Shown one piece after another: positions 349-54,400 of a stretch of 64,000 nt of DNA. Made by a program: the position numbers and the translations under genes. Source of the DNA: a virus. Lineage: Duplodnaviria; Caudoviricetes. Within the stretch, counting starts at the first letter, position 1. Each line of letters begins with the position of its first letter. Location of the stretch: the IMG/VR virus record IMGVR_UViG_3300025674_000014. One strand, given 5' to 3'. Below the pieces are notes generated by a model. It worked only from the letters and a program-made list of their open reading frames with translations. It was not told the DNA's origin and ran no database searches.

Positions 349-349
349 C

Positions 350-424
350 GCGCCTATAGTTAAACGGATATAACCCTAGCCTTCTAAGCTTGTATTCTTG
401 GTTCGATTCCAAGTAGGCGTACCA
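350..424 (+). tRNA. trnR: tRNA-Arg, anticodon UCU
   Basis: Acceptor stem GCGCCTA/TAGGCGT, discriminator A421, encoded CCA 422-424, T-loop GGTTCGATTCC, anticodon loop CTTCTAA (TCT at 383-385); one T-T mismatch in the anticodon stem. Confidence 0.93.
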
Positions 425-431
425 TAATTTT

Positions 432-605
432 ATGAGCGATAAAATACCATACTCCAAAGTTAATAAAACGTCGATTCCGGCTGCAAAATCGAAAGCTCCG
501 TCTTCGAATATGCAGTCAGAAAATCGAAATGCCGGTAAAGGTGATAAGCCCAGACATAACGTATCTGTTTATTCGCAAAATTATGACGATATCAACTGGG
601 GATAG
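432..605 (+). CDS. small hypothetical protein (57 aa; missing from ORF track)
   Basis: MSDKIPYSK...NAGKGDKPRHNVSVYSQNYDDINWG*; the GKGDKPR...NYD.I.W tail resembles a recurrent small phage protein as I recall it. Confidence 0.6.
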   Translation: MSDKIPYSKVNKTSIPAAKSKAPSSNMQSENRNAGKGDKPRHNVSVYSQNYDDINWG

Positions 606-615
606 TAAAACCGAC

Positions 616-2111: not shown

Positions 2112-2119
2112 TTATTAAC

Positions 2120-10991: not shown

Positions 10992-11068
10992 AGTTTTATG
11001 TATACGGGTTTGTAAGCACTCTACCAAGAGCGCTGGAAATTCTTATAAAAGGGTATCTATCAATGAGA

Positions 11069-25670: not shown

Positions 25671-25688
25671 AGCATCCTGTTATTATGT

Positions 25689-30200: not shown

Positions 30201-33200
30201 TAGTAGCTGTCTGCGTTGCTGTCTTAGTGTTTGTTGGTGTTGGTGTTTCAGTACGTGTTCTAGTACGTGTTCTTGTGGGAGATTGTGTTCTCGTTGGCGA
30301 TTGTGAACGTGTTCTTGTAGGTGTCTGTGTTCTTGTTCTTGTAGACGTTCTTGACTGTGTAGACGTTTTCGTCTTTGTAACTGTATTAGTACGTGTGTTT
30401 GTAGGAGTTTGTGTTCTTGTCTGCGTTGCTGTCTGCGTTGCTGTCTTAGTGTTTGTAGGTGTTTGTGAACGCGTACGTGTTACCGTTTCTGTTGCTGTTC
30501 TGGTAGACGTTCTTGTTTGTGTGGCTGTTCTTGTTCTCGTTGGCGTTTCTGTGCGTGTACGAGTTGGTGTACTACTACGTGTTTTAGTATTTGTAGCGGT
30601 TTGTGTGGTTGTTCTAGTGCTTGTCTTAGTAGGTGTATGTGTTCTAGTAGGTGTTTGTGTACGTGTTCTTGTATTAGTTTCGGTTCTTGTCTGCGTATTT
30701 GTTCTTGTAGATGTAGGTGTTTGTGTATATGTAGGTGTTGATGTTCTTGTATTTGTAGCGGTCTGCGTGTAAGTTGATGTAGATGTTCTTGTGTTAGTAG
30801 CAGTTTGGGTATTTGTTTTTGTTTGTGTTGGTGTTCTCGTTGATGTTTGAGTTGATGTTTTAGTAGATGTTCTTGTTTGTGTGGCTGTACGTGTGTTAGA
30901 TTTCGTTCTCGTTTGTGTGCGTGAACGTGTTTGCGTAGCAGTTTGTGTTGCCGTACTTGTAGGTGTTTGTGTTCTTGTACGTGTACTAGTAGCGGTATTT
31001 GTAGGGGTTTGTGTTCTTGTACTTGTACTGGTTTTGGTATTTGTTGGTGTTTGTGTTCGCGTACGTGTATTTGTTGGCGTTTGTGTACGTGTTTCAGTTG
31101 GTGTTTGTGTACGCGTACGTGTATTTGTTGCTGTTTGAGTAGGGGTTTGTGTTCTTGTTTGCGTTGGTGTCGGATAACGTGAAACAGTTGCAGTAGATGT
31201 TTGTGTGTTCGTTCTCGTCTGTGTAGATGTTCTCGTCTGCGTAGACGTTCTTGTCTGCGTAGATGTTCTTGTATTGGTTGGTGTTCTTGTACGTGTACGA
31301 GTGTTAGTTGCTGTTGGCGTTTGTGTACGTGTACGTGTTTGTGTATTTGTACGTGTATTTGTCGGTGTTTGTGTTCGTGTACGTGTACTAGTATTTGTAG
31401 GTGTTTGTGTGCGTGTACGTGTTTCTGTTGGTGTAGGCGTTTGTGTTCTCGTTCTTGTCTGAGTAGCAGTTCTTGTCTGTGTTGATGTACGTGTGTTAGT
31501 AGCGGTTTGCGTAGACGTTTGCGTAACCGTTCTCGTATTAGTAGCTGTTTGAGTAGCTGTTTGTGATGACGTTCTTGTTTGTGTTGGTGTACTTGTAGCT
31601 GTTCTAGAAGCTGTCTGGGTAGGTGTTCTAGTACGTGTAGCTGTCTGGGTTGGTGTTCTAGTTTGGGTTGGTGTGCGTGTACGTGTTACGTCAGGTGTAT
31701 CTGTTTGACTTGGTGTTCTCGTAAACGTAGGTGTTCTTGTTTGTGTTCCGGTCTGCGTTGATGTTGGTGTTTGTGTACGTGTACGTGTTTGTGTATTTGT
31801 TGGTGTTTGGGTGCGTGTACGGGTTTGTGTACGTGTACGTGTATGTGTTGGTGTTTGCGTTCTTGTCTGCGTCGGTGTTTGTGTACGTGTACGTGTGTTA
31901 GTAGATGTTTGTGTATTTGTTTTTGTTCTTGTTTGAGTAGCTGTTCTTGTCTGCGTAGATGTTCTCGTCTGTGTTGGTGTTTGTGTTCTCGTCTGAGTCG
32001 GTGTTTGTGTACGTGTACGTGTTTGTGTGTTTGTTCTTGTCTGTGTAGGTGTTTGTGTGCGTGTTCTTGTCTGCGTACGTGTACGTGTATTAGTAGCTGT
32101 TTGTGTGTTTGTTCTTGTCTGCGTAGATGTTCTCGTCTGCGTAGATGTTCTTGTCTGTGTTGGTGTTGGATAACGAGAAACCGTGCTCGTAGCTGTTCTG
32201 GATTGGGTAGCTGTTCTAGTTTGAGTATTTGTTCTCGTCTGGGTATTTGTTCTTGTTTGTGTTGGTGTCTGAGTACTTGTTCTTGTCTGAGTAGCTGTTC
32301 TTGTCTGCGTACGTGTACGTGTTTGTGTTCTTGTCTGAGTAGCTGTTCTCGTCTGAGTAGCTGTTCTCGTTTGAGTAGCTGTTCTAGTATTAGTTGGTGT
32401 TTGTGTACGTGTTTGTGTAGCTGTTTGTGTGTTTGTTCTCGTTTGTGTTGCTGTTCTCGTTGGTGTTTGGGTACGTGTACGTGTACGTGTACGTGTTTGA
32501 GTAGGTGTTTGTGTTCTCGTTCTAGTGTTAGTAGGAGTTTGTGTTCTTGTTCTAGTTGATGTATTAGTAGCTGTTCTTGTTTGTGTAGATGTTCTTGTAT
32601 TGGTTGGTGTTTGCGTTCTTGTAGGTGTTTGTGTTTGGCTTGCTGTTCTCGTACTTGTTGGTGTTTGTGTACGTGTACGTGTATTTGTAGGTGTTTGAGT
32701 TCTTGTTCTTGTCGGTGTTTGCGTTCTTGTTCTAGTATTTGTTGGTGTTTGCGTACGTGTACGTGTACGTGTATTGGTAGCTGTTCTTGTTTGTGTAGAT
32801 GTTCTTGTTTGTGTCGGTGTTTGTGTTCTTGTTTCGGTAGCAGTTTGGGTTGGTGTCCTTGTCTGCGTAGCTGTTTGAGTAGGTGTTTGTGTTCTTGTTC
32901 TCGTTGGTGTTAATCTAGGTAAGTCAAATCTATGACGTAATGCTGAGTAACTAGCTTCTATTTGATTTTCAGTTAATGCATCGTTGTATACTTTAACGAT
33001 AGCAATTTCACCGTTCATATCTCTAACTGAACCATAACTTTTACCAACGCTTAACAATGTTTCTGATGTATTTCTGCTAGAAGGTATCGAAACGGTACCT
33101 TCAAGATCAGCATTGAAATACATTTTCATATTAGAGCTATCAACAGTTATTGCAAATTGGAACCAACCGGTTGATGTGGTAAGAGCTGTTGGCATTGTAA

Positions 33201-33318
33201 TGGTGTAAGAAGAGCCACCAAGTATTAAATTAGCATATAACTTATTGCCTACAGGTAATCCTGAACGCTCTTTTTGCACTAATAACCAATTGCTTGAATC
33301 CCCCACATAAGTAAACAT
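27250..33318 (-). CDS. C-terminal segment of the giant mucin-like fibre protein (its frame is open back to ~33432)
   Basis: Begins mid-LamG domain, followed by a ~1400-aa (T-X)n stalk and a Cys-rich C-terminal region; the sequence upstream of the Met continues the homologous domain ([20 protein letters not shown]). Confidence 0.8.
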   Translation of the reverse strand: MFTYVGDSSNWLLVQKERSGLPVGNKLYANLILGGSSYTITMPTALTTSTGWFQFAITVDSSNMKMYFNADLEGTVSIPSSRNTSETLLSVGKSYGSVRDMNGEIAIVKVYNDALTENQIEASYSALRHRFDLPRLTPTRTRTQTPTQTATQTRTPTQTATETRTQTPTQTRTSTQTRTATNTRTRTRTQTPTNTRTRTQTPTRTRTQTPTNTRTRTQTPTSTRTASQTQTPTRTQTPTNTRTSTQTRTATNTSTRTRTQTPTNTRTRTQTPTQTRTRTRTRTQTPTRTATQTRTNTQTATQTRTQTPTNTRTATQTRTATQTRTATQTRTQTRTRTQTRTATQTRTSTQTPTQTRTNTQTRTNTQTRTATQSRTATSTVSRYPTPTQTRTSTQTRTSTQTRTNTQTATNTRTRTQTRTRTQTPTQTRTNTQTRTRTQTPTQTRTQTPTQTRTSTQTRTATQTRTKTNTQTSTNTRTRTQTPTQTRTQTPTHTRTRTQTRTRTQTPTNTQTRTRTQTPTSTQTGTQTRTPTFTRTPSQTDTPDVTRTRTPTQTRTPTQTATRTRTPTQTASRTATSTPTQTRTSSQTATQTATNTRTVTQTSTQTATNTRTSTQTRTATQTRTRTQTPTPTETRTRTQTPTNTSTRTRTQTPTNTRTNTQTRTRTQTPTATNTRTRTRTPTNTRTSTQTRTSTQTRTSTQTRTNTQTSTATVSRYPTPTQTRTQTPTQTATNTRTRTQTPTETRTQTPTNTRTRTQTPTNTKTSTSTRTQTPTNTATSTRTRTQTPTSTATQTATQTRSRTQTRTKSNTRTATQTRTSTKTSTQTSTRTPTQTKTNTQTATNTRTSTSTYTQTATNTRTSTPTYTQTPTSTRTNTQTRTETNTRTRTQTPTRTHTPTKTSTRTTTQTATNTKTRSSTPTRTRTETPTRTRTATQTRTSTRTATETVTRTRSQTPTNTKTATQTATQTRTQTPTNTRTNTVTKTKTSTQSRTSTRTRTQTPTRTRSQSPTRTQSPTRTRTRTRTETPTPTNTKTATQTATNTSTKTRTQTPTQSATRTRTRSNTPTRTRTRSRTQTPTSTRTATQTSTRTRTRTPTQTRTKSNTQTATRTQTPTNTRTRSQTPTRTKSRTATKTRTQTPTATRTKSNTQTATNTRTATSTRTRTKTRTQTPTRTQTPTNTRTATQTRTKSQTATRTRTPTRTATPAVTRTRTPTVTRTKSITQTPTPSRTRTQTRTQTPTQTRTRTRTPTRSATRTRTQTPTRSQTPTRTASRTRTPTNTRTQTPTYTRTRTRTPTYTRTRTQTRTKTRTQTPTRTRTPTQTRTQTPTRTRTPTQSATRTRTRTRSRTQTPTRTRTPTQSPTRTRTRTRTCTPTRTRTPTRTKSITQSRTRTRTPTQTRTRTQTPTRTRTPTRTKSITQSRTRTRTPTYTRTRTCTPTRTQTPTRTKSITHSRTRTRTPTQTRTRTRTRTPTYTRTRTQTPTNTRTRTPTRTRTPTYTPTRTRTKTRTPTRTKSITESKTRTPTRTSTHTPTQTRTPTVTSTPPVPNECSSVTDLICSGATCPTITSYTCANYTSGSYACTNLMPETKCTGTQGFRCFNQAKAHPWWTSRTDNYGNTSNTYILPWGTPTSGYGYKVRCISTSCVFGWTWKICFPFGGFITYGCDPYFCSAGTFKATYNYPTINSNVSSYSTITCSVDYSTLTTGQCIKFCYSCEVYNPAMTFATTNMLADSSNCFTYSYYVNNCRASGTPLYWCWCAPKPSGYTQHDSWMPAIYTACSTCNLCALANLYDCGYSGRCIYAWQSNWWSNYHIDNMCDKYLCAGYDSTSLCWGCGCKYILANVGCENYSLAYCCRNTTCGFTCGGQYVHNICLPGSDGGWYAYYTMCCTNCIPMMANKACMVKCSVCSSNYCMSMIDCLYYKINVSYGNNTSSNYPVCYLFSFGNGIIWCSIGANMPNTFTNQVVTVCKQLDFNDSCLNLWGSTRQFVGIAFLNVNNAACIHNSACINCVRLHQEWFDYKVKCIN
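28690..32910 (-). repeat. (Thr-X)n low-complexity coding stalk, approx. bounds
   Basis: Thr/Ser at every second residue; 6-nt periodic DNA, GT-rich on the + strand. Confidence 0.9.
28942..29229. repeat. three tandem 96-bp coding repeat units
   Basis: A 72-bp identical stretch at 29038-29109 and 29134-29205 (period 96), plus a diverged copy from 28942; encodes TPTRTKSITQSRTRTRTPT. Confidence 0.85.
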
Positions 33319-33407
33319 TACTTGAGTTTCATTTGATGTAAAAGAACTATCATCAAAATAAACCCATGAAATAATTGTAAAACTATCATTTAAAACAGGT
33401 AACGTAT

Positions 33408-36400
33408 TTAAATTAGAAACCGTTCTATATAATTAACCGCATCACCTGTAGAGGTTGGCCATACATAACTCTTAGGACTTGTTTGATTTAATTCTACATC
33501 ACCTACTATTACACTATCAATGCTATTTGATGTAATATCACCTATTCCAGTAGCTGGATAAAACTCTCTAGATTGTGGTGTGAAATTACTTGTGTATCTA
33601 GCAGTACCAATTGTAAGTCTAAACTCATCTATATAACCAGTTAGTTTTGATGTACCGTCAGATTTTGATCCAATTATTAATTGACCACCTGGAGCCGTAC
33701 CGGATATTGAAACGGTAGCTTCTTGTGTACCGTCAATGAATAATCTTGCAGTACTACTATCTCTTACAGCAGCTAAATGATACCAAGTGTTATTTGATAA
33801 TGTTGAAGTTGAATATGTATCAGCGCTTATTATACCACCAGAGAATAAAACTTTACCATTTGCTTCAACAGTTAATAATACCCCACCAGATCCACCACCT
33901 CTTGTATCAAAAATGTACTGTCTACTACCTATAGAACTTACATAAACCCATGTTTCAAAAGTAAAGTCAGATGAACCTAAAGCTAACCCAGAAGAATAAT
34001 TTAGGTAAGCTGTTCCATCAAAATAAGCACTACTACCACCAAATTTAAATTGATCGGTACTAATTTCTGTATTTGTATTTGATGCTGTATTAGAAGCACT
34101 ACTACTATCAGTGAACGTTGTAGAACCATCGGTTCCGTTCATATGTAATAGTAACTGAACGTCTGAATAATATGTATCCGAAAGATCTCCGGTTGTGGTT
34201 GTATTATCGGCATCGTAATATGCTATCAAATCACTTTGAATTGCAGATGTCGCTGTTTGCGTTGGTGTCTGTGTAGCTGTTCTTGTTTGTGTAGGTGTCT
34301 GTGTACTTGTTCTTGTTTGTGTTGGTGTCTGTGATCTGGTTTGTGTAGATGTTCTAGTCTGGGTAGCTGTTGCTGTTTGGCTAGCTGTTCTAGTTTGTGT
34401 TCTTGTTCTGGTGTTAGTAGCAGTTTGTGTAGACGTTCTTGTCTGTGTACTTGTTCTTGTACTTGTAGGTGTTTGTGTTGTTGTTCTAGTAGATGTATTT
34501 GTAGGTGTTTGTGTTGGTGTTTCTGTTCTAGTTCTTGTTCTTGTAGGTGTAAAGGTAGGTGTTCTGGATTGCGTAGGTGTATTTGTTTGACTAGATGTTC
34601 TTGTTTGTGTTCTTGTTCTTGTACTGGTTACTGTTTGGGTGTTTGTTCTTGTTTCAGTTGGTGTTCTTGTATTGGTAGGCGACTGGGTTGGTGTTTGTGT
34701 TGATGTTGGTGTATTAGTAGGTGTTGAAGTATTTGTTCTTGTATTAGATGGTGTTCTTGTTTGTGTAGGTTGTGGTGATCTTGTTCTAGTAACTGTTTGG
34801 GTGTTTGTTCTAGTTACAGTTGATGTTTGTGTAGGGGTTTGTGTTCTAGTTCTAGTATTAGTAGGTGTAGGTGATAACTGTGGTAAGTTAAAACGTTTAA
34901 ATGTGGTTTCGTAATTTAACTGAACCTGGTATAACGTCAATGCTGTGTCATAAACTTTTAATGATGCATATTTACCATCCATAAACCCGCTCAAACCATT
35001 ATAGCTTGCCATTCTAGGTCTTGGATTTCCGTTATTCAAGTTACTAACATCTCCTTGGAAGTCAATTAATGTTGAATGATCTTGATAACCATCAACATAA
35101 ATTCTCATATCATTAAACTTACCAGGGTAGAATGTTGTTGTAGGTCTTCTAAAGTTACCGGTGTAACGAGCAATACCTTTAGTTATTCTAACATCCTGTA
35201 AATAACCGTTCATGTATTGAGATCTATTTTGACTACCAATATAAAGATCTCTTGTACTGTTATATACTGAGCTTGTACCTACATCTGTATTACTAGTTGA
35301 TATACCATCAACGTAAACTCTTAATGAAGTACCATTTCTAACTAATGCAACATGGTGCCATGCATTATCGTTAACAGCAATTGTGCTTGTATTTGTATAT
35401 GTCCAACCTGTACCAGTAGTACTAATTGCACCAACTGCATAACCACCATTACTATCAGATAACGCTCCTAAGTAGAATGCTGAATTAGAAGATGCTCCAA
35501 ATGACGATTGACTTGCTATAATCTGATAATTACCAGTAGAAGGCCCACCTGGTGATTTCATCCAAGCTTCAATAGTGAAATCTCCATCACCAAAATGCCA
35601 ATCATCGCTATCACTATATAATAAATAGTCACCGCTACCGTCGAAGTAACCACTACTTCCACCCCACTTATAATCGTTAGTAAGAATTTCAGTATTACCT
35701 GCAACATCTGATGGTGTTCTTGCAGCGCTACTACTATCGGTAAATGTAGTAGATTCATTCGCACCGTTCATATGCAATAACAACTTAACATTCGGGTAAT
35801 ATGAATCTGTAGGTACATTAACATCACCACTTAAGGTTGTGTAAATATGATGCCATTTACCATCTGTTATATTAGTTGTACCTGTTGCACTTAAAGCACC
35901 TGCTGTTGCTTCAGGTAATGTATAAACTTGCAATGTACCAGATAATGGATCAACATTCATCTGGAAATTATCAATTGTATCTCCGGTAGGTCCATCAAAT
36001 TTGAAAATGTTCTGACTAATACCATTACTCAATGATTTAGAATTAGATTGAACCCACATACCTACACTGAATGAACTTAATGAATTATATCCGCTTAATT
36101 CAGCATAATCACCATGCCCGGACATCGCAACATAATAAGATGATAAACTATCCGCAACATTGTAATTAATTGATGGTGAATATACATAACTTGGGAACAT
36201 ATCTTGAGGAGTATCAAAATCTGCTGTATATCTTGCAACATCTCTTGTTACTCTCAACCCGTTCATCCATCCATCTAAACTTGCACCTTGACCAGTTTCA
36301 CATGCAACGTATATATAATTACCGTTAGTAACACTGTCACCCCAAGTAGTTTCAGCTATCTTAGTGCCATTAACAAATAATCTCATTACTCCAGATTCTC

Positions 36401-39400
36401 TAGAAACTGCTAAATGATACCACTTATCAATTTCCATTCCGTGAGTACCGTTAATTCTTTGAGTATCGGTATAATGTACAATTAATTTTGTCTGACCTAT
36501 TAAGAAACCAAAACCATTTCCAGATCCAGGATCGCCACTAGTGATAATCATTTGATGATTTTGCCAATTAGTTGGCCAAGAATCACTTGTAGGCATACTT
36601 CTTAATTTAACCCAGGACTCAATAGTAAAGTCGTTGGTATAAAATCTCATATCATAACCAGCATATGCTGGTTTCATAATACCATCAACGTTACCGGAGC
36701 GATTAAATTCACCACTACTACTACCAAATTTGTATTCAGATGTAGTAATAAATGCATCTCCTAAAGTAATAAATTCAGCATTAGCGCTACTACTATCAAC
36801 AAATGTTGTTTGACCGCTTAATCCTTGGAAGTTCAATACAATGGCATTATAATCTGAATATTCGTCTCTATTTGCTATAGTAAGATCATTATTATTTGAG
36901 CTAATGTCCTGCCATAGATAAGGTGATTGACCTGTTGATGTATTCGTTGGTGTGGGAGTTACTAAAGGAGCTAATGTTTTATTAAACTTAGATAATAAGT
37001 AGTTATTCATTCTAGCTACTTCATAATCTGTTAATGCGGTACCATGAACTGCTACTGCGCCAACTTTACCATAAAATCTATTACCTTCACCTTGATCGGA
37101 GAATATATTAAAATTATGTCCAGGGTAAAATCTATAACCGTATGGATCGGTTATATCTATGTTAAATGCTTGAACACCGTTGATAAAACCAGACATTTTA
37201 TCTTTTGTTCTTCTGTAAGTAATAACATCAAATCTACCTTCACTTACAGGTAACTTAGAGAATCCCCAACTACCACTTAATGGATATACATTATCACCAT
37301 GTCCGATACCAATGTTATAATATCTATGATATGCATCATAACTACCGTTACCCATGTTCATAGATATACCCATATCAGGGTAATTGGTATCAAACAAGTA
37401 CATTTCCCTAGTTTCTTCATTAGGCTGCATTGCTAATGTAATGGTCCAATCAGATGCAGTAAGAGGTTGGAATGTATTGTTATACCCGTAACCATTTTGC
37501 CATTCTAAATGTCTTGGATTAATATAATTATCATCAACTAATCTATAACCGGCCATTATAGTTTCGTAATGATTATCAGATAAATCATACCAACGATTAC
37601 CACCACTTGCAGGATAACTAAATGTATTTGTTGAATCTAAGAATAAGCATAAGTTTCTTGTTGAAACACATGCACCTTGAGTTACTGTAGGTGTGTTTGT
37701 AGGCGTTACAGGTGGTGTACATACTGATAATGTATATCTACTTGATAATGCTGCGTAATCAGCGCAAACTTGTTCGTGAGATAAACCACATGTTTGATAC
37801 CATCTAAATGTTGCAATACTACCCTTCCAACGATAATCGTTCCTTTCTTGACGATAACCACCTAACATAGGCAATAAATTACAAGAAGATAATGAAAGTA
37901 TATTAGAAGTATTTTCTGCTGATAATCCAGGCACACCATTTAAATAAGCATAACTTACATTATTCTTTCTTACAAATGCTACATGACTCCATTCACATAA
38001 TGTTAAAGCACTTAATGGGTAAGTCCAAACATCACCACCTGTTGAATATAAACCATTAGTGTAAAATCTAGCTCTACACTGATCATCAACTAACCACCAA
38101 AGTTGGTAATCATGGCCATAAGTACCTATTCTTTTCGTATTACCTAAAATTGTAGAATTAACCCTAGTAGGGCAAATCCAAGCTGTTGCTGAAAAGTCGC
38201 CGGATAAAGTTTCAAAAGCATTAGGGTTGTTAAAATAAACTGCTCCAGAACAACTGCAACGTTCATCCCAACATAAGGTACCACCACCATCATATTCGCA
38301 ATTGCTATACCAAGGGTAGTTGCTTATTGGGTAACATGTACCGTATGGGCAACAAAATTTATGACAACATTTCTGTGAATAAAGTGTCAAGTCATTACAA
38401 AATAACGTACCATCGTTACCATGATTAGTTAAGTCAACAATATTACTTTCGGTACACCCGTAAGCTGATCTTGTATAATTAGGATATGATTGTTGATTAT
38501 AAAAATCGTAACTAATTGTTAAACAATCCGGTGCTGCTACATATTGTGTAGCAGTAGGTGTAGGGGTAACACCAATAGTTGGTGAACTACTTCTTGTTGG
38601 AGTATAACTTCTAGTTCTAGTTACGGTAGATGTTTGTGTTGGTGTTTGTGTATTAGTAGGAGCAGGTGTAGCTTGATACCTAGCAGACAAACCTTTGAAG
38701 TCAGAAATTACTTCATCTCTTGTCATACCAAACCCACAATAAACTCTATATTGAGCTAAATTACAAAAAGCTCCAAGTGTGTATGGACGACCGTAATCAT
38801 AGATATTGTAACAATTATTTACAGGGCAGCAAAATAGATCACCTGCATTTGAATAAATTGCAATTTCATTAGCTCTTCTAGAAACATTAACATAATGGAA
38901 TGAACTTAATGTAAGCTGTTGTGTACATAAAGTAGGTAATCCCTGACCACTAACTATATATCTACAATCGCTACCTCTCCAATATATATCAAACGGGTTG
39001 TTATTCCATGAATACCTATCTACTACGCTTTGATCACCGCTTGTTGAAACGGGTCTTGCCCAGAATGCTACGGTAAAATCTTCGCAGAAGAATGTTAAAT
39101 CTGTATTTTCAGGTAAACACATACCACTTCTGAATGAAAGTGTACCCTGATATGGGTCTGCACAATAACAAGAATTGTATACAGTAAGTCTACCATGATT
39201 ATTTCTTGGTGATAAATCTTCAACATAAACATATTGACCATTCTCACCATCTCTTTCAGGTAATGTGCAATATGGGTAAGATTGTCCTTGATAAAAATCT
39301 AAGTGTAATACTAATTTATCACTCTTTAAAAAGCAACCTGCAGGCGTAGTGGTAGGTGATAACCCTATAGTATTTGTTCTTGTTGGTGTGTTAGATGATG

Positions 39401-42400: not shown

Positions 42401-45400
42401 TAATTGTATTACATCTTGTTTTAGTTTTGGTAGGTGTTACAGCTCTTTCAGGTAAGTCGTACATATACCTGTATTTTTCGGTATCGTAATTTTCTTTAAC
42501 TTGAGCTTGGTTTAATGCACAATTATAGTATTTGTATGAACCTAAACCACCGCACATACGACAATTACCATCAGGAGCAGTACCAATAGTAAAGTAATTA
42601 TCAGCTGAATTACTCCAATAACAGGTCATACAAGTACCTTCGGAGTTAATCATATCAACTAATTCACCATTAACAAACAAACATGTATGATCTTTACTAT
42701 AAACACCTACAACATGAGCCCATTGCCTATTATGACCTTGCCCATTGAACAAATCGTTAGTTCTGGTTGCACCTGCACAAGCGCAATAATATCCACCGTT
42801 ACTTCTTCTAGTACCGAAAACAATACCTCTACCGTCGTAACTTCTAGGATAACCGTTCCATTCTGATACAAATAACCAAAAACCATAATCAGCAGCACCA
42901 TTACGACCGTAAGCTGCAATTGTTCTAGCGTAATACCTATTATCGATACATACCCAAGCTTCAACCGAACCCTCATCAGGGTTAATAGTGTCAGCCCAAT
43001 AATTAGGGGTGCTATATAATCTATTATCACCATTCCAATAAGTGTATTGCATACCGGTACCGGTTGATGTTAACGTCGGGTAATTTGTATAGCAAACATA
43101 TATATCAGTATCACCTTGTAAATTATAGAAAAAGCAACCACCTGATGCAGGGTAACTCAACGTATTATTAGGCTCAAAATATAAACATAAATTTGATGAA
43201 TACCCAACTGATGTTGGTGTGTAGTTAATAGTATTTGTTTTTGTAGGTGTGGGTGTATGCACGTAATTAGTACAAACATCACTTGCATCTTGATTAGCAA
43301 CTAAGTTACTTGTAACTATTCCACTTGTTTGTGTTTGTGTTCTTGTTGGTGTGCTACTATAAACTGGTGTGGGTGTTGGTGTGTTTGTACTAGTTTGGGT
43401 AGCTGTTCTTGTATTTGTTCTAGTACGTGTACCTGTAGGTGTTTGAGTTATTGTCTCAGTTATTGATTTTGTTATTGTCGGTGACTGAGTTATTGATTGG
43501 GTTTGTGTTGGTGTAAATGTATAGGTAGGTGTTTGTGTATTTGTAGGGGTAGATGTTTGAGTTTGAGATCTTGTTTGTGTAGGTGTTTTTGTTTGTGTTT
43601 TTGTTATTGTTCTAGTTGTGGTATTAGTTTTAGTAACTGTACCTGTTTGAGTTGGTGTTTGGGTTTGGGTAGGTGTTTGAGATCTAGTAGGTGTAGGTGT
43701 AGTATTAGGATTATCAGGGAATGGGTACTTAATAACTACAATACCATTACCACCGCGTGATCTAGGACCACCACCACCACCGGTACCATCAACACCTGCA
43801 GAGTTACTACCGCATCTACGACCACCGGAGCCACCACCGCCGCAGCCACCAACACCACGGCAGCCACCACCACCACCACCGACCCAACATAGGGTACCAA
43901 ACATTTCGAAACATACACCGACACCACCATCACCGCAACAACCAGTAGTGCCGTCACAAGATAACTGACCTGGTCCACCGGCACCACCACCGCCACCACC
44001 ACTAGATGAAGCACAAACTGCTCCACCATCATGACCTTGACCTGGTATACCAGCACCACCACAACCGCGATAACCACCGTTATCAACACTTGTACCACCT
44101 GCTCCGGAACCACCGGATTGACCGTTAAAACGACCACCGTTCCATGGAAGACCGGAATAACCACCTTGACCACCACCGCAAGCACTAATGGTACCGAACA
44201 TTGAGTTATAACCTCTAGTATAACCTTGATTCCAACTTGGGTTACCAAATGATGCAGCACCTACACTTACTTTAAAATTACCTGTTGTAGCTTGGAAAGC
44301 GCTCAATACAACACCACCGGCACCACCACCGCCAAGACCGTAGTTATACTCACCACCAGCACCACCACCACCACCGGCAACGACCATGGCTTCAATAGTG
44401 TTATAAACTTCACTACTAGCGGTATTGTTTACATAAAAATCATAATCATATACACATCTATAATCTGTACAAAATATATGGTAACGAAAACCTTCACATT
44501 GAATTTCACAACCACCAAACGCTCTTATATAATAAGAACCAGGTGAAGGTGTTACCGTTTGGGTAGCTGTTTGAGTTCCTGTTCTGGTTTGTGTTGGTGT
44601 CTGAGTAGCTGTTCTTGTTTGTGTAGGGGTATGGGTACCTGTTATAGTTTGTGTTGGTGTCTGGGTAGCTGTTCTAGTTTGGGTTGGGGTTCTTGATCTA
44701 GTTGGTGTTTGTGTTCTCGTTCTAGTTTGGGTGCGTGTTCTAGTTTGGGTGGCTGTTCTAGTTTGAGTAGCTGTTCTAGTTTGTGTAGATGTACGTGTTT
44801 GGGTTGGTGTTTGTGTTCTAGTTTGGGTAGGTGTTTGCGTTGGTGTTAATTGTGGTAAATTAAAACGTTGGAATGTTGCTTCATAATCATCTTGTACATC
44901 ATCAGCAGACATTTCCCTGTTATACATTTTAAACTGAGATATATCTCCGTTTAATCTACCTTTAGTATAACTATAACCACCAATTCTAGGTCTAATGTTA
45001 CCGTTATTTAAATCAGTAGGCGTTATATAATTATTATAAGATACTTCTGGATAACCATCTACATATAATGTAGATACCGTACCCGTACCAGGATAAAACT
45101 GATTATTTGGTGGTGTAAAACTACTTGTATAACGAGCAACTCCTTTAGTTACTCTAACATCTTGCATGTAACCATTTAAAGGTTCAGTTGAATATCCTGC
45201 AATATCACCAATTTCAGAATATGTCTGGGTATAGTTTCTTGTATCTGTTGCAGTATCAACTAAAGTACCGTTAACAAACATTCTTAAACTACCGCTTTCT
45301 CTTGTAAAAGCATAATGGTACCATTGACCTGAAGTTACACCATTCCATTCTACTATTCTTGCTCCTTGTGCATACCAACCAGTATCGCCATTAGCTCCTG

Positions 45401-48400
45401 TCCAAGTATTAAACCCATTAGATGCTCTAGTTGTAGAAACGTGTGTTATCCAATTGTATATAGAGTTGAAATAAATCCAATATTCAAGAGTAAAATCATC
45501 AGTACCAAAAGCCAAAGCTGATGATTGCCAAGATAGAAAATCTTCTGACCCTTGAAAATAACCACTAGTACCTTGAAATTTATACTCGTCATCTGTAATC
45601 ATTGCATTACCATTTGTGGTAATATTGTTATCAGAAGCTGATAAACTTGAATCGGTAAAGGTTTGTGATCCACTTAATCCATTCATATGTAAGAGTAAAC
45701 TTACATTTTCATAATACGGATCTACAGGTATATCATTATAACCTAAAGTTGCATAAACTTGATGCCAATTACCATCAGTCAAATCTGTATAACCGTCAGC
45801 ACTTAATGTATCGGCACCGGATAACAGAGTATTGTATGCTTGTAATGTACCGGTGTCAACATTAATACCTAACTGAAAGTTATCGGCATTATCTCCCGAA
45901 GGACCGTCTAACATAAACAATTTAGGACTTACCCCTCCGTCAATAGCAGAACTATCTGTTTTAATCCACATACCAACAGTAAATGCACTAAGGGTAGTTC
46001 CAACATTAAGATTATTATTATCTAGAACTATATCATTTACTGTGTAATATGATGATAATGTATCAGCTATATTATAAGATGGTTCAGATAAATTGTAATT
46101 AGCAAACGTAGCATTTGGTGGTGTAAAATCATCAGTGTAACGAGCTATACCTTTTGTAATTCTTAAATCTTGGATATAACCGTCCATTGAATCGGAATTT
46201 TGAAAGAAGTTAGATGTACCAATTATACTGCTTGAAACACCATTAAACAATGTACCAGAATAAGTTGCAGAGTTAAGTTCTGTACCATCTCTAAATACCT
46301 TAAAGGTATTACCGCTTCTAGTAGCGGCAACATGATACCAAGTATTAGTACTCCAACCTGAAGTATTACCTTGACTTGCATTAACTAAGAACGACCCAGA
46401 ATCAACAGATAAAAATCTTAAACCTTCTTCCCAGTGAAGGGCAAAAACCGTTACGTTACTGCTGTTATCTTGTTCACTATAATCTGTTAATATATAATGA
46501 CTCTCATCACTTGGTAAACTGTCAAATCTAACCCAAGCTTCAATTGTAAAATCATCACTACCAAAATTTGCAGCTGTGTTAGGTACAGTTAAATAACTTG
46601 AACCGGAGCCGTTAAAATAACCACTACTACCGCCCCATTTATACTGATCCGTACTTGTTACTGCACTACCGTATGTTGTAACGGTATTAACTGAGCTACT
46701 ACTATCTGTAAACGTTGTACCATCATTGTTACCATTCATATGTAATAACAATGAAACGTTAGGATAATATGTATCTCCTGATGCAAATTTAAAGTCATTT
46801 ACATTAGTTGTGAGATCATACCAGGTATTAGAATCTGCAGGATAAAATCCAGTAGAAGGTGTTCTTGTTGTTGTAGCTGTTTGTGTGACTTGAGGTGAAC
46901 CAACACAATATCTATTTTTATTGGAATTATATAAATTGTTTATATCTTGTTGAGATAATGTGTCATTAAAGACTTTAGCTTGACCAATTTTACCGGTAAA
47001 TAAATTACATGATGAATTCCAAGGATCTCTACCAATTGCAAAACAACCATGCGATGCATAATCAAGGAACGGTGTAATGGAATTGCTATTAACCATATCA
47101 CCGTTATAATACAATTTTGTACCATCAGTTGGTGAATATGTAAATGATAACTGATTCCATTCACCTGTAGATAAACAACCTGAGTTATAAACACAGCTGT
47201 CATTAACACCGCCTGTACCATATTGAACTTGGGCATATAAACAACTACCGCTGTTTGTACCTAATGCAGCTTGTCTGTTACCAGAATTAGCTGCATCAGT
47301 TATCACGTCAGCATCGGATAAACTATCAAAATTAACCCAAGCTACATAAGTTAAGTTACAACCGCTTGAAAAATCTTTTAATATGGAATCACCAACCATA
47401 CCATCACCACTACTGAAACAGAAGTATTTGATACCACAACTGGTTGTATATGTTGGCCCGCAAATTGATAAATTATAACTATTAGCTAAATCATACCAAG
47501 TTGTACCACTTGTATAACTAGAGGTATTATCAGCATCCCAATATGCTACTAAATTAGTAGAATATGGTGGTGTATTAGTAACGGTAGGTGTATTTGTTTG
47601 TGTTGGAGTTGGTGTTGATACAAATGCGCTTCTAATACTTGATGCATCTTGATTAGCAATTAATCCGCATGTTTGACCATGGGTTGATGTATTTGTTGGG
47701 GTTTGGGTTGATGTTCTTGTATAAGTTGGTGTAGCTGTTCTAGTAGCACTTGGTGTGTAAGTTGGTGTTCTTGTTCTAGTAGCGGTATTGGTAGCTGTTC
47801 TAGTACTTGTTCTTGTTTGGGTACTTGTTCTTGTTGATGTTTGCGTAGGAGTTTGTGTTCTTGTTCTAGTAGCGGTATTGGTAGCTGTTCGTGTAGCTGT
47901 TTCAGTGGATGTTCTTGTTCTAGTATTAGTTGGTGTTCTAGATTGTGTAGGGGTAGGTGTTGATGTAGCGGTTTGGGTTGGTGTTCTTGACTGGGTAGGT
48001 GTTCTTGTTCTTGTACTACCAGGTGTTCCTGATCTTGTGCTTGTACTAGTAACTGTTCGTGTACTAGTTACGGTGTTTGTAGCCGTTTGTGTTGGTGTTT
48101 GAGTTGGTGTTTGTGTTCTTGTCCTTGTCCTTGTAGGGGTGTTAGTTTGTGTATTTGTTCTGGTTTGAGTTGATGTTCTTGTTGATGTTGCTGTCTGTGT
48201 ACTTGTTCTTGTAGCTGTTTGTGTAGATGTTTTGGTGTTAGTAGGTGTTTGTGTAGATGTTCTAGTTTGAGAAGCTGTTCTAGTTTGGGTAGATGTTCTA
48301 GTAGAGGTAGGTGTTTGAGTACAAGTAGCTGTTTGAGTAGATGTTCTTGTATTAGTAGCTGTTTGAGTAGATGTTCTGGTTTGTGTATTGGTTCTTGTAT

Positions 48401-51400
48401 TAGTAGCTGTAGCAGTTGGTGTTTGAGTTGGAGATTTAGAACGTGTGACGGTTGCAGTAGCTGTCTGAGTAGCTGTTCTTGATTGAGTTCTAGTTCTGGT
48501 AGCCGTTTCAGTAACTGTAGGTGTCCTAGTTTGTGTTTGCGTAGCTGTTGGTGATGCCCCTTGAGTGGCTGTTCTAGTAGATGTTTGAGTTGGTGTTTGA
48601 GAACGGGTACGTGTATTTGTTCTTGTTTGTGTTGATGTCTGTGTAGATGTTCTTGTATTTGTAGGTGTTTGTGTTCCGGTAGTGGTTGTCGTATTAGTAG
48701 CTGTTCTTGTCTGGGTTGGTGTATAAGTTGGTGTATTAGTTCTTGTCTGAGTTACTGTTGGGGTTTGTGTAGATGTTTGTGTGGATGTTGGTGTAGATGT
48801 TACCGTCTGTGATGGTGTCTGGGTTGGTGTAAATGTTCTTGTCTTTGTATTAGTAGGCGTTTGTGTTGATGTTGGTGTGCTTGTTACTGTATTGGTAGCA
48901 GTTTGGGTAGGTGTTTGTGATCTTGTTTGTGTTGGTGTAGCTGTTTGTGAATGTGTTCTAGTTTGTGTTGGTGTATTTGTTGATGTTGCTGTTTGAGTTG
49001 GTGTTTCAGTTCTGGTAGCTGTTCTTGTCTGGGTAGGTGTTTGTGTTGGTGACTGAGTAGCTGTTAAAGTAGCTGTTGGTGTGTTTGTCTGAGAAGACGT
49101 TACTGTTTGGGTAGGCGTTGGTGTTTGTGAACTTGTTTGTGTTGGTGTTCTTGTTGCAGTTACATCAGGTGTATCTGTCTGGCTAGGGGTTCTTGTAAAT
49201 GTAGCTGTTCTAGTGTAAGTAGGTGTTTGTGTTCTAGTATTTGTTCTTGTTTGGGTAGGGGTTTGTGTAGGTGATTGAGTAGCTGTTTGTGTTACTGTAC
49301 CTGTTGGTGTTTGGGTTGACGTTCTAGTTTGGCTAGCTGTTCTAGTGGTTGTTCTAGTAGCGGATTGGGTAGGTGTTCTTGTTCTTGTTGCTGTATTAGT
49401 TGGTGTGTAAGTTGGTGTTGATGTAGATGTTTGACTTCTTGACTTAGTAGGTGTTTTGGTTTGTGTAGCTGTTGGTGTTTGGGTTTGTGTACCTGTTCTT
49501 GTACTTGTTGGTGTTTGGGTTTGAGTAGATGTTTTAGTATTAGTAACGGTAGCTGTTCTTGTCTGTGTTGGTGTACCTGTTCTTGTAGATGTTTGTGTAG
49601 CTGTTCTTGTACCGGTAATGGTAGCTGTAACCGTTGGTGTTTGTGTTTGAGTAGATGTTCTTGTTGCTGTTGGTTCAGCTGTTTGTGTTTGTGTTGTTGT
49701 TCTTGTCTGAGTTTGTGATCTAGTTTGTGTTGATGTTCTTGTACTTGTAGCTGTTGCCGTAACAGTTGATGTACTGGTTGGTGTTCTGGTTTGTGTATTT
49801 GTTCTAGTTTGTGTAGGTGTTTGTGTTCTTGTAACAGATGCTGTTGGTGTTTGTGTTTCTGTTCTTGTCTGTGTTGAAGTTCTTGTTACAGTAGATGTAG
49901 CTGTTTGTGTTGCTGTCTGAGTTGCAGTTGCTTCTGCTGTAGGTGTATTAGTAGCTGTTCTTGTATATGTCGGTGTTGCTGTTTGAGTTGGTGTTTGAGT
50001 TGCAGTAGCTGTACTAGTTTTAGTTCTTGTATTAGTAGCTGTTTGTGTAGCTGATCTAGTCTGGGTAGCTGTTCTTGTTTGAGTGGGTGTTGCAGAGTTT
50101 GTTGCTGTAACTGTTGGTGTAGCTGTATTAGTAGCTGTCTTTGTCTTACTAGCTGTTCTTGTTTGGCTAGCTGTTCTGGTTTGTGTATTAGTTCTTGTTG
50201 ATGTAGCTGTTTGCGTGTATGTTGGTGTATTAGTTCTTGTTCTTGTTCTGGTTGATGTAACTGTAGGTGTAATTGTTCTTGTTTGTGTAGGTGTTTGAGT
50301 TGCGGTAGATGTTACAGTTGATGTTTGAGTAGGTGTTTGTGTAACTGTTGATGTTGCTGTTGGTGTTTGAGTTGCTGTTCTGGTTTGGGTAGGTGTTTGT
50401 GTACCTGTTTGTGTATTTGTTCTAGTCTGTGTAGATGTTCTAGTAACTGAAGGTGTTGGTGTTAATTCAGGTAAGTTAAATCTTTGTCTTAAACTATTAT
50501 AACTTGATTCAATTTCATTCTCAGTTAATGCTGAATCGTATAGTTTTACGATAGCAATATCTCCAAACATGTCAGCTTCTAAAGTTTCACTGGTATTAAA
50601 GTTTCTACCAACCGCAAAAGCAGGCTGTGTGGTACTTCTTGAAGATGGTACGGTTAAAGTACTACCTAACTGGTCAGCATTAAAATATAATTTTAATTCA
50701 TTATTTGATAATGTTAATGCAACTTGAAACCATCCAGTTGATGATGATAAAGCTGGTAAACTACCATCAATACCTATAGTATAACTTGTACCACCTGATC
50801 TTAATTGACCAAATAACCTATTAGGTGCTGCTGAATAACCACTTCTGACTTTGTTAATTTTTATTAAATTACTATCATCAACATATAAGTACATTATCTG
50901 ATGATATCTATTAGTAGAAAATGAATCATCATCATATCTAACCCAAGCTAAAACCGTAATATTATCATTAAGAACGGGTAATGTACTTAAATTAGAAACA
51001 CTTTGTAAATAGTTTACACCACCAAAAGCTTGCCAAGTAGGCCAATTATAATATTTCGGTTGAGTTGCTTGATATAAATCAACGTCGCCAACTATTACAC
51101 TATCAATGCTATTTGATGTAATATCATCTACACCAGTAGCTGGATAAAATTCTAAAGATTGCGGTGTAAATGCAGCGTCATTTATAAACGGATATTTAGT
51201 GTTGTTATAATCAGCTTCAATTTCACTAGCAGTTAAAGCTTTATCTAGATAAAATCTTGCAACTGATAAATCTCCGTTCATATATGAACTATTACCTGAC
51301 ATAATAGTCCAATTAGCTCCTGATGTAATATCTCCACCAGGTCTATTACTAGCAGATGTAGCTTCTAATACACCATCTACATAAATTCTTAACTTAGTAG

Positions 51401-54400
51401 AATCCGCAACATAAGCTATATGATGCCAAGTGTCATCATTATAAGTATCAGAAGTTCTAGCTAATCTTTCTGTACCTGATGAATTTCTTTCCCAGAAATC
51501 TAGCTTACCACCATTAGTAGCATCTCCAAGCCCCCTCATACCTACCATAAAGTATGAAGAAGTACCGTTATAGTCGGTAGCTAAAGGTTTTGTATAACTA
51601 TGTGCACTTTGAGTAGAATCTAATTTTACCCAGAAAACAAATGAATATTGTTTATTATCTAAGGTAAAACTTCTACCTGTTGCTATATTATCATTACTAC
51701 CATCAAATGATAAGTAAGCTGGTGAATCTGGACTATAAGTTGCTCCATTAATAGTAGCATTATACGCTCCAGATGTTAAATCATATAAAGTTGAAGTTAA
51801 TGCACGCCTACTACCAGCATTAATATTATAATTAAATTCTAAATCTGAAGTTAATGAAGTTTCAGTACCCGTTTCGTATCTTCCAACTCCTTTAGTAACT
51901 CTAAATTCATCAATATAACCTTGTAATTGATAATTATCACCAATTTTAGATCCTGCAATGTTTAACGTTGTACTTGATCCATTATCAATAGAACCAGTAT
52001 AACTGCTGTTATTAGCCTCCATTACACCATCAACAAACAAATAAAATACACTATCTTTTCTTTGAAGTATTACATTATACCAAGTATTTGTACTTACTGA
52101 AGTGGTTGAAGCTAATACAGGTGCCCCATCATTCTTTAAATTATAAGCCCAAAATGTAAATAAATTTTGCCTATTCGGGTGGTCAGCGTAAAGTACCCAT
52201 TTATCACTACCCCAATTTCCGTCAACATAATTTTTAGTTATAGTAGTACCGCTACTACCGTGAGCGGTAATATAAACCCAAGTTTCAATAGTAAAATCAC
52301 CTGAACCGAATGCTGTACTAGAACTTGTACTATAACTTAACCAATCATTATTACCGTCAAAGTAAGCACTACTACCACCAAACTTAAATTGATCGGTACT
52401 AATTTGAGCATTACCGTTAACAGAAGCTGTTCTATTAGCACTACTACTATCAGTAAATGTGGTAGAACCGTCAGCTCCATTCATATGTAACAGTAACGAA
52501 GTGTCGCTATAATAGGTATCCGAAAGATCTCCGGTAGTGGTTTGATTAGCAGCATCGTAATATGCTATCAAATTACTGGTTATTGGCCCGGTAGCTGTTT
52601 GTGTTGGTGTATGAGTAGCTGTTCTGGTTTGGGTAGGGGTATTTGTTGCTGTTCTTGTATTAGTTGGTGTATTGGTTTGGCTAGCTGTTCTTGTTTGTGT
52701 ATTTGTTCTTGTAGCCGTAGCAGATACTGTTGATGTAGGTGTAGACGTTTTTGTAGCTGTTTGTGTTGGTGTTACTGCTCTAGTAGCTGTTTGGGTAGCT
52801 GTTCTAGTATGGGTAGCTGTTCTTGTATAAGTTGGGGTTGATGTTTGTGATCTTGTTCTTGTTTGAGTACTAGTTACCGTTGAAGTAGCAGTCTGTGTTG
52901 ATGTTTGAGTTGGTGTTGACGTTTGGGTATTTGTTTTTGTCTGTGTAGCTGTTCTTGTAGCTGTATTTGTAGCAGTCTGAGTAGCTGTTCTGGTTTGTGT
53001 AGGTGTTTGTGTTCTGGTTTGGCTAGCTGTACGTGTTTGTGTTCTAGTTCTGGTAGATGTAGCTGTTTGTGTTGCTGTAGGTGTAGATGTTTGTGTTCTT
53101 GTATTAGTAGCCGTTCTTGTCTGTGTTGGTGTAGATGTTTGGGTTGGTGTTCTGGTTCTTGTAACATCTGGTGTATCTGTCTGACTAGGTGTTCTAGTAA
53201 AAGTCGATGTTCTTGTATTGGTAGGTGTAGGTGTTGATGTACTAGTAGGGGTTTGGGTAGGTGTTTCAGTTCTAGTTACTGTTGATGTATTTGTTCTAGT
53301 TTGGGTTGGTGTTTGGGTAGCTGTTGGGGTTGCTGTTTGACTTGCTGTACGGGTCTGTGTTCTTGTTCTTGTATTAGTAGCAGTCTGGGTTGGGGTTTGA
53401 GTAGATGTTTGAGTTGCTGTAGCTGTTTGGCTTGCTGTTCTTGTAGCTGTTTGACTTGCTGTTCTTGTAGGTGTTTGGGTTTGGGTTGCTGTTGCAGATT
53501 GGGTAGCTGTTCTTGTTTTTGTAGGTGTTTGTGTTCTGGTTTCAGTAGCTGTTTGAGTAGATGTTCTGGTTTGCGTTCTTGTTGGTGTTTGGGTTGAAGT
53601 TCTTGTTGCGGTAACTGTAGCTGTTTGACTTGCTGTTCTGGTCTGTGTTCTTGTTCTAGTAGATGTTGATGTTTGTGTTGCTGTTGGTGTTGCTGTCTGA
53701 CTAGCTGTTCTTGTCTGTGTATGAGTCTGGGTAGCTGTTCTTGTTACCGTCTCCGTTGCTGTTCTAGTTTGGGTAGGGGTTTGGGTTGCTGTCTGAGTTG
53801 CTGATTGGGTAGCAGTCTGACTAGCTGTACGTGTTTGTGTTCTTGTTCTTGTTGATGTAGAAGTTCTGGTCTGGGTAGGTGTTCTGGTTTGGGTTGCTGT
53901 AGGTGTTTGAGTTGATGTTTGAGTAGGTGTTTGTGATCTTGTTCTTGTAACTGTTTCAGTTGCTGTTCTTGTCTGGGTAGGTGTTTGTGTTCTAGTATTA
54001 GTAGCAGTCTGTGTTGGTGTCTGTGTAACTGTACTTGTTACTGTTGGTGTTTGAGTAGCTGTTTGAGTTGCTGTATTAGTAGCTGTTTGGGTAGGGGTTT
54101 GTGTTTGGCTAGCTGTTCTTGTTTGAGTAGGGGTTTGAGTTTGGCTAGCTGTTCTAGTTACTGTAGCTGTTTGAGTACCGGTTTGTGTATAAGTTTGTGT
54201 ATTTGTTCTAGTCTGGGTAGATGTTCTAGTAGCCGTATTAGTTGCTGTTTGTGTGGGTGTTTGAGTTTGGCTAGCTGTTCTGGTTTGTGTAGGTGTTTGT
54301 GTTTGTGTTGCTGTTCTAGTATTGGTTGGTGTTTGCGTTCTTGTTCTAGTAGATGTTTGTGTAGCTGTTTGGGTGGGTGTTTGTGTCTGAGTTGAAGTTC

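Follow-up and report, generated by a model that had tools for sequence, protein, structure and literature searches.

Nested insertions of the order A1-B1-C-B2-A2 have been documented in proteins, including the recursion of one fold in Si3 of the cyanobacterial RNA polymerase β′ subunit (PMC13114784, Protein Sci 2026). According to that 2026 survey, 20% of multidomain proteins contain insertions; in 77% of events the insert was the smaller partner, and the medians were 115 residues for inserts versus 199 for hosts (PMC13114784). In siphophages of Gram-positive bacteria, the 'evolved Dit' carries one or two carbohydrate-binding modules (CBMs) in loops of the Dit galectin domain, and these inserts were shown to bind the host cell (PMC7291167). 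The 'split domains' in adhesins of the repeats-in-toxin (RTX) kind, such as FrhA of Vibrio cholerae, the Aeromonas hydrophila adhesin and MpIBP, project ligand-binding domains (PMC10865825, PMC12077191). Here we analyzed a viral DNA stretch of 64,000 nucleotides (Duplodnaviria, Caudoviricetes; IMG/VR record IMGVR_UViG_3300025674_000014), called the window below, in which a giant open reading frame (ORF) on the minus strand contains four blocks, A to D, in which LamG domains are interrupted by complete copies of a second LamG type, called T2. We consider it very likely that each of the four blocks groups two or three concanavalin A (ConA)-like (LamG) jelly-rolls into a compact cluster, built by whole-domain insertion into LamG surface loops with a cassette moving by recombination, and that the whole is most likely a glycosylated virion fibre with knobs.

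Domain architecture of the four nested blocks

We divided the giant protein at its threonine-rich stretches into globular blocks, with linkers of 15 to about 1,400 residues between them. Pfam searches of the blocks returned solely Laminin_G_3 (PF13385, LamG), plus Gly_rich_2 in two other blocks. The number of Laminin_G_3 stretches matched was 3 in block A, 4 in block B, 3 in block C and 1+1 in block D. Each inserted domain on its own scored 56-75 bits (cut-off 27.6), with 56.1-74.5 bits for the T2 copies, which places them in this family by sequence together with the inner domain and the host C-part of block A. The host pieces matched as complementary halves, with 25.6 and 29.3 bits in block B and 29.2 and 19.2 bits in block C.

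Block A (52574-50469; all features of the giant ORF are on the minus strand) reads host N-strand, T2 N-part, inner LamG, 14-residue T2 C-piece and host C-part. The host strand 1 (52521-52574, aa 1634-1651) aligns with strand 1 of S3308 (an uninterrupted LamG paralogue, aa 3308-3523), of the relative P0254 and of the inner domain. The T2 N-part, which is level 2 (51867-52520, aa 1652-1869), ends in GRYETG and matches Laminin_G_3 positions 3-141 with 59.8 bits. The inner LamG, which is level 3 (51183-51866, aa 1870-2097), matches positions 1-150/151 with 74.6 bits, and the T2 C-piece (51141-51182, aa 2098-2111) completes the T2 fold after it. The host C-part (50469-51140, aa 2112-2335) ends in RFNLP and matches positions 4-150 with 54.2 bits.

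Blocks B (46850-44853) and C (36932-34881) share the order host piece, T2, host piece, T2, host piece. Block B begins with host strands 1-2 (46776-46850, aa 3542-3566), a segment kept in P0034 and in block 2 of L002, followed by T2 insert 1 (46101-46775, aa 3567-3791; 74.5 bits), a host middle piece (45726-46100, aa 3792-3916), T2 insert 2 within a hairpin (45090-45725, aa 3917-4128; 58.9 bits) and a host C piece ending in RFNLP (44853-45089, aa 4129-4207). In block C, host strands 1-2 (36855-36932, aa 6848-6873) are followed by T2 insert 1 (36192-36854, aa 6874-7094; 56.1 bits), which is the most divergent T2 with 28-36% identity to the other five, a host middle piece (35811-36191, aa 7095-7221), T2 insert 2 (35124-35810, aa 7222-7450), which gave the best Laminin_G_3 stretch of the block (positions 1-141), and a host C piece (34881-35123, aa 7451-7531). 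Block D (34235-32923) consists of a host strand 1 paralogous to that of block A (34179-34235, aa 7747-7765), an uninterrupted T2 (33555-34178, aa 7766-7973; 84 bits) and a host body spanning an apparent frameshift (32923-33554). This body lies in two frames in the window, where an A is missing behind 33422, and was followed by a three-frame reading against its paralogue in block A; its segment P0002:1-140 matches Laminin_G_3 positions 49-150.

T2 is a LamG type with the signature D.YY..V.LLLHMNG...FTDSS...ARYT..FTP...FYP. The six copies (A1, B1, B2, C1, C2 and D1) are 208-232 residues long and share 28-56% mutual identity, D1 and A1 being 56% identical. An exhaustive search with block A gave T2 homologues in 35,793 proteins at E<=0.001, and nearly all of the best 150 were long head-to-tail T2 arrays. 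Therefore, T2 is an autonomous domain that usually occurs as beads on a string; it is complete in the blocks and found by itself elsewhere. The AlphaFold models of blocks A and B predicted a two-sheet jelly-roll, which superposed on solved ConA-like domains with Z scores of 17-22 and root mean square deviations (rmsd) of 2.5-3.0 over 189-206 aligned residues. The nearest solved folds of T2 (Z 15-22) were AbnA domain 4, CBM40 modules, the clostridial neurotoxin (BoNT) Hc-N and a cyanopodophage tailspike domain.

The hosts of blocks A and D are 56% identical and those of B and C 41.6% identical, with about 20% between the two pairs, which points to two host subtypes, A/D and B/C. The insertion points follow the subtypes: after strand 1 in A/D, and after strand 2 plus in the mid-domain hairpin (WH.VY / LYVDG) in B/C. 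The initial annotation of the window had given four ranges of nested LamG domains together with their motifs; the ranges fit the blocks that we mapped independently, and the quoted motifs are present in the protein. Its third LamG within the inserted domain at 52590-50460 corresponds to the complete inner LamG that splits the T2 of block A, and its two insertions at equivalent positions were recovered as the same two sites in the paralogous hosts B and C. It had also proposed one host LamG type repeatedly interrupted by T2; the interruption holds, but the hosts fall into two subtypes rather than one.

Insertion sites and the third level

Four agreeing lines of evidence, some of them from predicted models, make the mid-domain site of the B/C hosts, which carries the second insert, the firmest case of insertion. 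The host pieces flanking this insert are complementary and colinear parts of Laminin_G_3, positions 14-89 then 90-151 in block B and 2-91 then 92-151 in block C. We built an independent LamG model from 21 IMG/VR loci retrieved with the inner domain of block A, and removed the inserts in silico as the initial annotation had proposed. In intact block B, the host fragments matched this model at 54-141 (13.3 bits) and 144-218 (35.2 bits), and after excision and rejoining they gave a single match at 54-218 with 55.8 bits. The rejoined block C host, strands 1-2 included, likewise gave a single match at 23-218 with 58.0 bits, versus 0.6, 17.9 and 27.6 bits for its three pieces.

The middle and C pieces of block B were also given to a complex predictor as separate chains. 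The pair scored 0.68 (best of 3 controls, 0.00), a pass that means likeness to one LamG, not an independent measurement, and that is likely helped by the pieces being halves of a much-solved fold; of the solved complexes, 58 of 80 attained the 0.68 mark, as did 2 of 110 mismatched pairs, a rough calibration since own alignments were used. Three runs agreed in at least 69% of contacts, which number about 310, with a predicted local distance difference test (pLDDT) of at least 68 for the partner. The predicted contacts joined middle-piece residues 113-119 with C-piece residues 5-12, and 40-47 with 49-56. The ...NWHQVYA... strand paired antiparallel with ...VSTLYVDG..., which is the hairpin cut by the insert, and the FTVGMWIK strand paired with the GDISQFKMY strand. 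These predictions suggest that the host parts of block B form one domain in three dimensions. The AlphaFold model of block B, calculated with an alignment of architecture-anchored rows of tandem T2-T2 fragments, had a mean pLDDT of 78.9, with both T2 domains above 90 and the expected strands in the host pieces. Solved jelly-rolls superposed on residues 29..250 of this model with Z up to 19.6, and 5hon_B superposed on 379..584 with Z 21.9; the structure-search list was filled by the two T2 domains, so that it bears on these alone.

The third level was found in block A. The T2 tail of block D runs through unbroken, and that of block A has a complete 228-residue LamG between GRYETG and the C-piece. 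In alignment A7, all 64 of 64 T2 homologue rows placed their last 7-10 residues on the 14-residue C-piece, across the 228-residue gap. The AlphaFold model of block A, whose alignment consisted of architecture-anchored rows (single T2 fragments plus nested hosts), had a mean pLDDT of 73.1; the T2 N-part was mostly above 90, and the C-piece reached 82 between low-confidence connectors. Of the 50 best solved chains, 23 were single jelly-rolls superposing on about 23..477-481 of the model, with about 170-215 residues aligned and the inner domain omitted; for example, AbnA domain 4 (5hon_B, 206 residues) gave Z 22.1 and rmsd 2.7 with 196 residues aligned on both T2 parts. Residues 482-711, which are the host body, matched BoNT Hc-N, the PAPP-A LamG and pentraxin domains with Z 14-17.5. 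Thus the T2 of block A is discontinuous and is completed after a further complete domain, in the order A1-B1-C-B2-A2. In the AlphaFold check that the initial annotation had called for, run on blocks A and B, the T2 parts and the third level fit nesting, but the N-terminal host strands were not placed.

The same module of T2 with an inner LamG occurs in L003, a 170-kb viral contig (IMG/VR UViG 3300030102_007788, 165455-169138), where it lies in another fibre protein without the outer host. The inner LamG of L003 is 69% identical to that of block A and enters at the same ARY | F-T-x-Q site. Therefore, T2 with an inner LamG is a conserved two-level unit, which in block A sits within a third domain (host > T2 > LamG). 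The L003 fibre protein (1-3684) also bears GQTLQTQITSNDSDISTL repeats and GIGT.SP repeats. MAFFT (alignments A3 and A5) piled all LamG fragments onto the commonest domain and misplaced even the 69%-identical inner domain of L003. A regular-expression screen of 716 T2 C-terminal motifs in the retrieved matches, with 37 odd tails inspected (P0164, P0210, P0147 and P0217), gave no clear further split case. Two candidates for nested relatives, the tblastn match to Syn1 gp217 (query 68-483 in one piece) and the phmmer stretch of P0143 (32-463), were rejected, both being linear T2 then LamG.

At the N-terminal sites, T2 follows strand 1 in the A/D hosts and the equivalent of strands 1-2 in the B/C hosts. 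The equivalent strands are contiguous and aligned column for column in S3308, in the inner domain and in P0254. When block A was rejoined, its match to the independent model widened from 21-218 (42.6 bits) to 10-218 (45.4 bits), and the rejoined relative P0209 matched at 6-218 with 44.0 bits, versus 37.6 bits. P0209 (521 aa) has the same strand 1, then T2, then an A-type host body. P0254 (287 aa) combines an N-terminal anchor of the same type with an uninterrupted host; it shares 40% identity with P0209, and on one contig its gene lies directly upstream of a P0209-like one. P0254 is thus an insert-free homologue of the A/D-type host, and the B/C-type relatives vary in insert number. Since the basis is homology and an uninterrupted paralogue, with the strands unplaced by AlphaFold, the sites after strand 1 or 2 are rated as probable insertions.

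Tandem small fibre-like proteins were seen on L040 (1508-3795) and L039 (570-2380), each with one A-type LamG and a shared N-terminal anchor (M..[LF].[NSD]L[TS].N...G....G...R..P..G..R[FY]NT.T...E.Y); T2 is inserted in one paralogue and absent in its neighbour. Lone copies of the LamG first-strand motif were also observed within threonine-rich linkers of the giant protein at 47628-47663 and 43275-43307, about 25 residues ahead of the following LamG, in which a first strand is present as well, and such a lone copy is kept in L002 at about 7480-7510.

Relatives, assembly and gene neighbourhood

We compared fragments and contigs of relatives from Tara, ENA, JGI and IMG/VR samples. The results showed that relatives with the same host subtypes have 0, 1, 2 (tandem) or 3 inserts per host. 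P0034 and P0123 carry two tandem T2 domains at site 1 of a B/C-type host. In block 2 of L002, T2 occupies site 1, the hairpin site and also an additional one, the loop preceding ...GTTNI.DG.WH..., and P0106 carries T2 at this extra site and the hairpin site; block 1 of L002 and P0157 are of the A/D type. The comparison of insertion sites among relatives, which the initial annotation had suggested, therefore gave a total of five sites in three LamG subfamilies, with the C-terminal site of T2 included.

The T2 tree was mostly unresolved, and B1 grouped with C2 (92/81), not with C1. The T2 of block D (D1) was 76% identical to the site-1 T2 of P0123 despite the differing host subtype (tree support 100/100). 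From this grouping across host types we infer that inserts move independently of hosts. The hosts of B and C are clearly paralogues, whose inserts have been exchanged or separately acquired since. The initial annotation had explained the double insertions by duplication of the whole nested cassette; the inserts do not support this, as the hosts are paralogous but the tree paired neither B1 with C1 nor B2 with C2.

The giant ORF (27250-57473) encodes an N-terminal domain, threonine-rich linkers, about 17 LamG-type domains, two Gly_rich_2 domains and a cysteine-rich C-terminal domain. As read in the window, it has 8,021 codons (33408-57473) followed by 2,022 codons (27250-33318) past the apparent frameshift. 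An extra A behind 33422 is found at full depth in contigs of four public runs (X1, X5, X6 and X7), three of which are not the source. Therefore the stop at 33408-33410 and the frameshift of block D are a consensus error of the window, absent from the phage population, and the protein forms a single chain of about 10,075 residues. The fourth block of the initial annotation, drawn across the frameshift, is thus real at 34235-32923, but the frameshift itself is a missing base. In the threonine-rich linker between blocks C and D (34250-34830), the short-read assemblies of the four runs join in many ways, skipping 18-423 bases, and therefore the true linker length is uncertain or varies in the population.

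More large ORFs lie upstream of the giant ORF on the coding strand. Downstream on the same strand (21722-27215) are two PF11397 (GT60-type N-acetylglucosamine) glycosyltransferases, at 24318-27215, and an FkbM-methyltransferase/HtrL fusion; this neighbourhood fits O-glycosylation of the threonine-rich linkers. A T4-type major head protein is encoded at 9450-11027 (phrog_138, E 3e-84; about 33% identity to cyanophage gp23). Megablast of the region against 50,697 phage records gave zero DNA-level matches, the phage being absent from that collection, and sampled words of the region were present in aquatic and freshwater metagenome runs. Therefore, the giant ORF encodes a structural-module protein of an uncultured, divergent T4-like phage. 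NCBIfam searches returned weak TafC fimbrial-protein matches alone, far under the cut-off, and no family name was obtained.

Other features were observed along the protein. In its middle part, cysteine-rich LamG-like blocks alternate with the Gly_rich_2 (PF21722) domains (43713-44537 and 41562-42302), and the blocks at aa 5370-5625 and aa 5779-6018, as well as the C-terminal aa 1546-2022 of the second ORF, had no Pfam match. A motif ending in (R/A)TRTPTQ occurs five times in the threonine-rich linkers (first bases on the minus strand 56270, 54686, 53186, 49184 and 31710) and also punctuates the Tara fragment P0256, and a second linker motif, VSRYPTPTQ, occurs three times. These motifs could be processing, glycosylation-boundary or recombination signals.

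Alternative readings and comparison with known systems

Chimeric joins between paralogous LamG copies during metagenome assembly might in principle produce a nested order, and both the inconsistent joins of the linker beside block D and the one consensus error of the window would suit such an artefact. However, T2 copies that are at most 56% identical in protein are too divergent for mis-joining, and all junctions are in frame. The words of block A were present at 0.93-1.00 in 7 runs, contigs of 6-13.6 kb from three non-source runs span block C with 0 differences, and the same junction types occur in unrelated samples (Tara, ENA and IMG/VR), and we regard an assembly artefact as extremely improbable. 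A linear order of T2 then host LamG is conceivable at the N-terminal sites only (A, D and insert 1 of B and C), where the preceding 18-25 residues would be a linker remnant or a strand serving another domain. AlphaFold leaves these residues unplaced with pLDDT <50, residues 482-711 of the block A model suffice by themselves for superposition on complete solved domains with Z about 17, and a similar strand motif stands orphaned within linkers. Yet the motif NL[IV]A.[YW]DA.N adjoins strand 2 in the uninterrupted S3308 and P0254, it is conserved in every nested copy (A, D and P0209), and L002 retains the following loop residues; moreover, rejoining gives a higher score against the LamG model and a match that runs on to the N-terminus, and T2 has a first strand of its own and needs no donor. 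Taken together, a linear arrangement at these sites seems unlikely, and insertion into a host loop is preferred there as well.

Several points weigh against loop insertion as the general reading. The gains from rejoining at the N-terminal sites were small (+2.8 bits in block A and +6.4 bits in P0209). The low AlphaFold confidence of the N-terminal host strands (block A residues 1-21 and block B residues 1-25) is itself neither support nor refutation. The inner domain of block A had no homologues in its fold, where model residues 241-305 are poor and its N-terminal third is unreliable, and the host pieces of block B are of moderate confidence in their model (pLDDT 50-79). No uninterrupted B/C-type host homologue was found in the word-indexed protein search, which gave only two relatives with the B/C host middle piece, and an IMG/VR scan with that piece gave none. 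As to glycan binding, ConA-like folds also have non-lectin roles. The initial annotation had proposed that insertion into loops builds a branched topology. This central inference holds, the topology being branched rather than linear: profile coordinates, excision, fragment assembly, AlphaFold and relatives support it for the mid-domain site and the third level, and homology and the uninterrupted paralogue for the N-terminal sites.

The domain topology is shown at the level of sequence and models, and we propose the following mechanism for this nested architecture. With its ends side by side, T2 could be looped out of a host loop while the host fold stays intact. It would enter after strand 1 in the A/D host, and after strand 2 or in the WH.VY / LYVDG hairpin in the B/C host, and would itself host a classical LamG just ahead of its last short strand piece, giving host > T2 > LamG. 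Recombination would move the cassette, as the relatives show by their 0-3 copies, the extra site and the near-identical T2 across host types. Nesting would anchor each added domain at both ends, so that the lobes may be fixed rigidly to each other, and would add binding modules without cutting the chain. Because of the fold neighbours of T2, the threonine-rich linkers, which space the four blocks by 100-1,400 residues, and the adjacent glycosyltransferases, the giant protein is most likely a long virion fibre that is glycosylated and bears multi-lobed knobs. The knobs may bind glycans of the host envelope or of particles; the labels 'lectin' and 'multivalent' used in the initial annotation are inferred from the fold.

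The nesting could also be real and still a neutral by-product of frequent LamG recombination in a hypervariable fibre gene, with no binding benefit and with domains that are maybe spacers or decoration. The free variation of insert number and position among relatives would be expected under this explanation, most of the 35,793 T2 proteins are plain tandem arrays with no other clear split among the 716 C-terminal motifs, and no ligand site was identified. However, both B/C host sites are kept in paralogues only 41% identical and in relatives, T2 with an inner LamG is kept at 69% identity in the fibre of another phage, which argues for selection on nested units, and the closest solved folds (AbnA domain 4, CBM40, BoNT Hc-N and the cyanopodophage tailspike) are carbohydrate-binding or receptor-binding. 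We therefore find a purely neutral origin rather doubtful, and keep to knobs built by insertion of whole domains. A further suggestion, offered tentatively, is that T2 is a mobile self-nesting cassette dropped by recombination into a few permissive LamG loops, including its own last loop, by which phages of this lineage may build and reshuffle multi-lobed receptor-binding knobs combinatorially. If true, host range would be diversified here along a modular route that differs from point mutation, variation of the diversity-generating retroelement (DGR) type and simple tandem shuffling of domains.

The architecture is unusual in that one fold is inserted into itself to three levels with inserts as large as the hosts, and in that the process is caught in action, with 0-3 copies at five loops and a near-identical insert in differing host types. 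It offers a natural map, useful for protein engineering, of the loops at which a LamG jelly-roll accepts a whole extra domain, and it suggests how giant phage fibres gain binding modules with the chain unbroken. It also serves as a warning that standard domain callers and multiple aligners tend to misread nested proteins as tandem arrays, because MAFFT stacked the LamG fragments on one domain here.

Compared with Si3 of RNA polymerase, the giant protein shares a discontinuous host, a complete looped-out domain, an insert acting as host, recursion of a single fold and several inserts per host. The domains differ, being hybrid-motif domains in a polymerase there and LamG jelly-rolls in a virion fibre here, and unlike in Si3 and nested insertions in general, the number and site of inserts vary here among close relatives. 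The sizes also depart from those of the survey, since inserts of 208-232 residues stand in hosts of 229-246 residues, and two inserts amount to twice the host. The evolved Dit is likewise a phage virion protein with β-sandwich sugar-binding modules in loops of a β-sandwich lectin-like host, with one or two inserts per host, and with presence varying among related phages. In contrast to the giant protein, its host and insert belong to different families (galectin-like and BppA-type CBM), it forms a hexameric baseplate hub rather than a giant fibre, and no third level is described there. The Pfam and PHROG scans of the blocks gave no Dit-type match, no comparison aimed at Dit having been made, and the evolved Dit is an analogue and not the family of the giant protein.

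The RTX adhesins resemble the giant protein as giant fibrillar adhesion proteins with ligand-binding domains budding from a loop of a stalk domain. Their host is a small immunoglobulin-like stalk repeat, whereas the host here is LamG; they are bacterial type 1 secretion substrates with RTX repeats, whereas this is a phage structural-module protein with threonine-rich linkers; and no same-fold recursion is described there. Syn1 gp217, a 'virion structural protein', and other cyanophage and phage arrays share T2 domains of the same family (25-45% identity), and a classical LamG often comes next. In Syn1 gp217 and P0143, however, the C-piece of T2 precedes the next domain, whereas in the window the next domain precedes the C-piece. 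Our literature search found no published description of such LamG-in-LamG nesting. These comparisons indicate that the giant protein is a new combination of known ideas, namely LamG within LamG within LamG, host-sized inserts, several sites per host and turnover among relatives.

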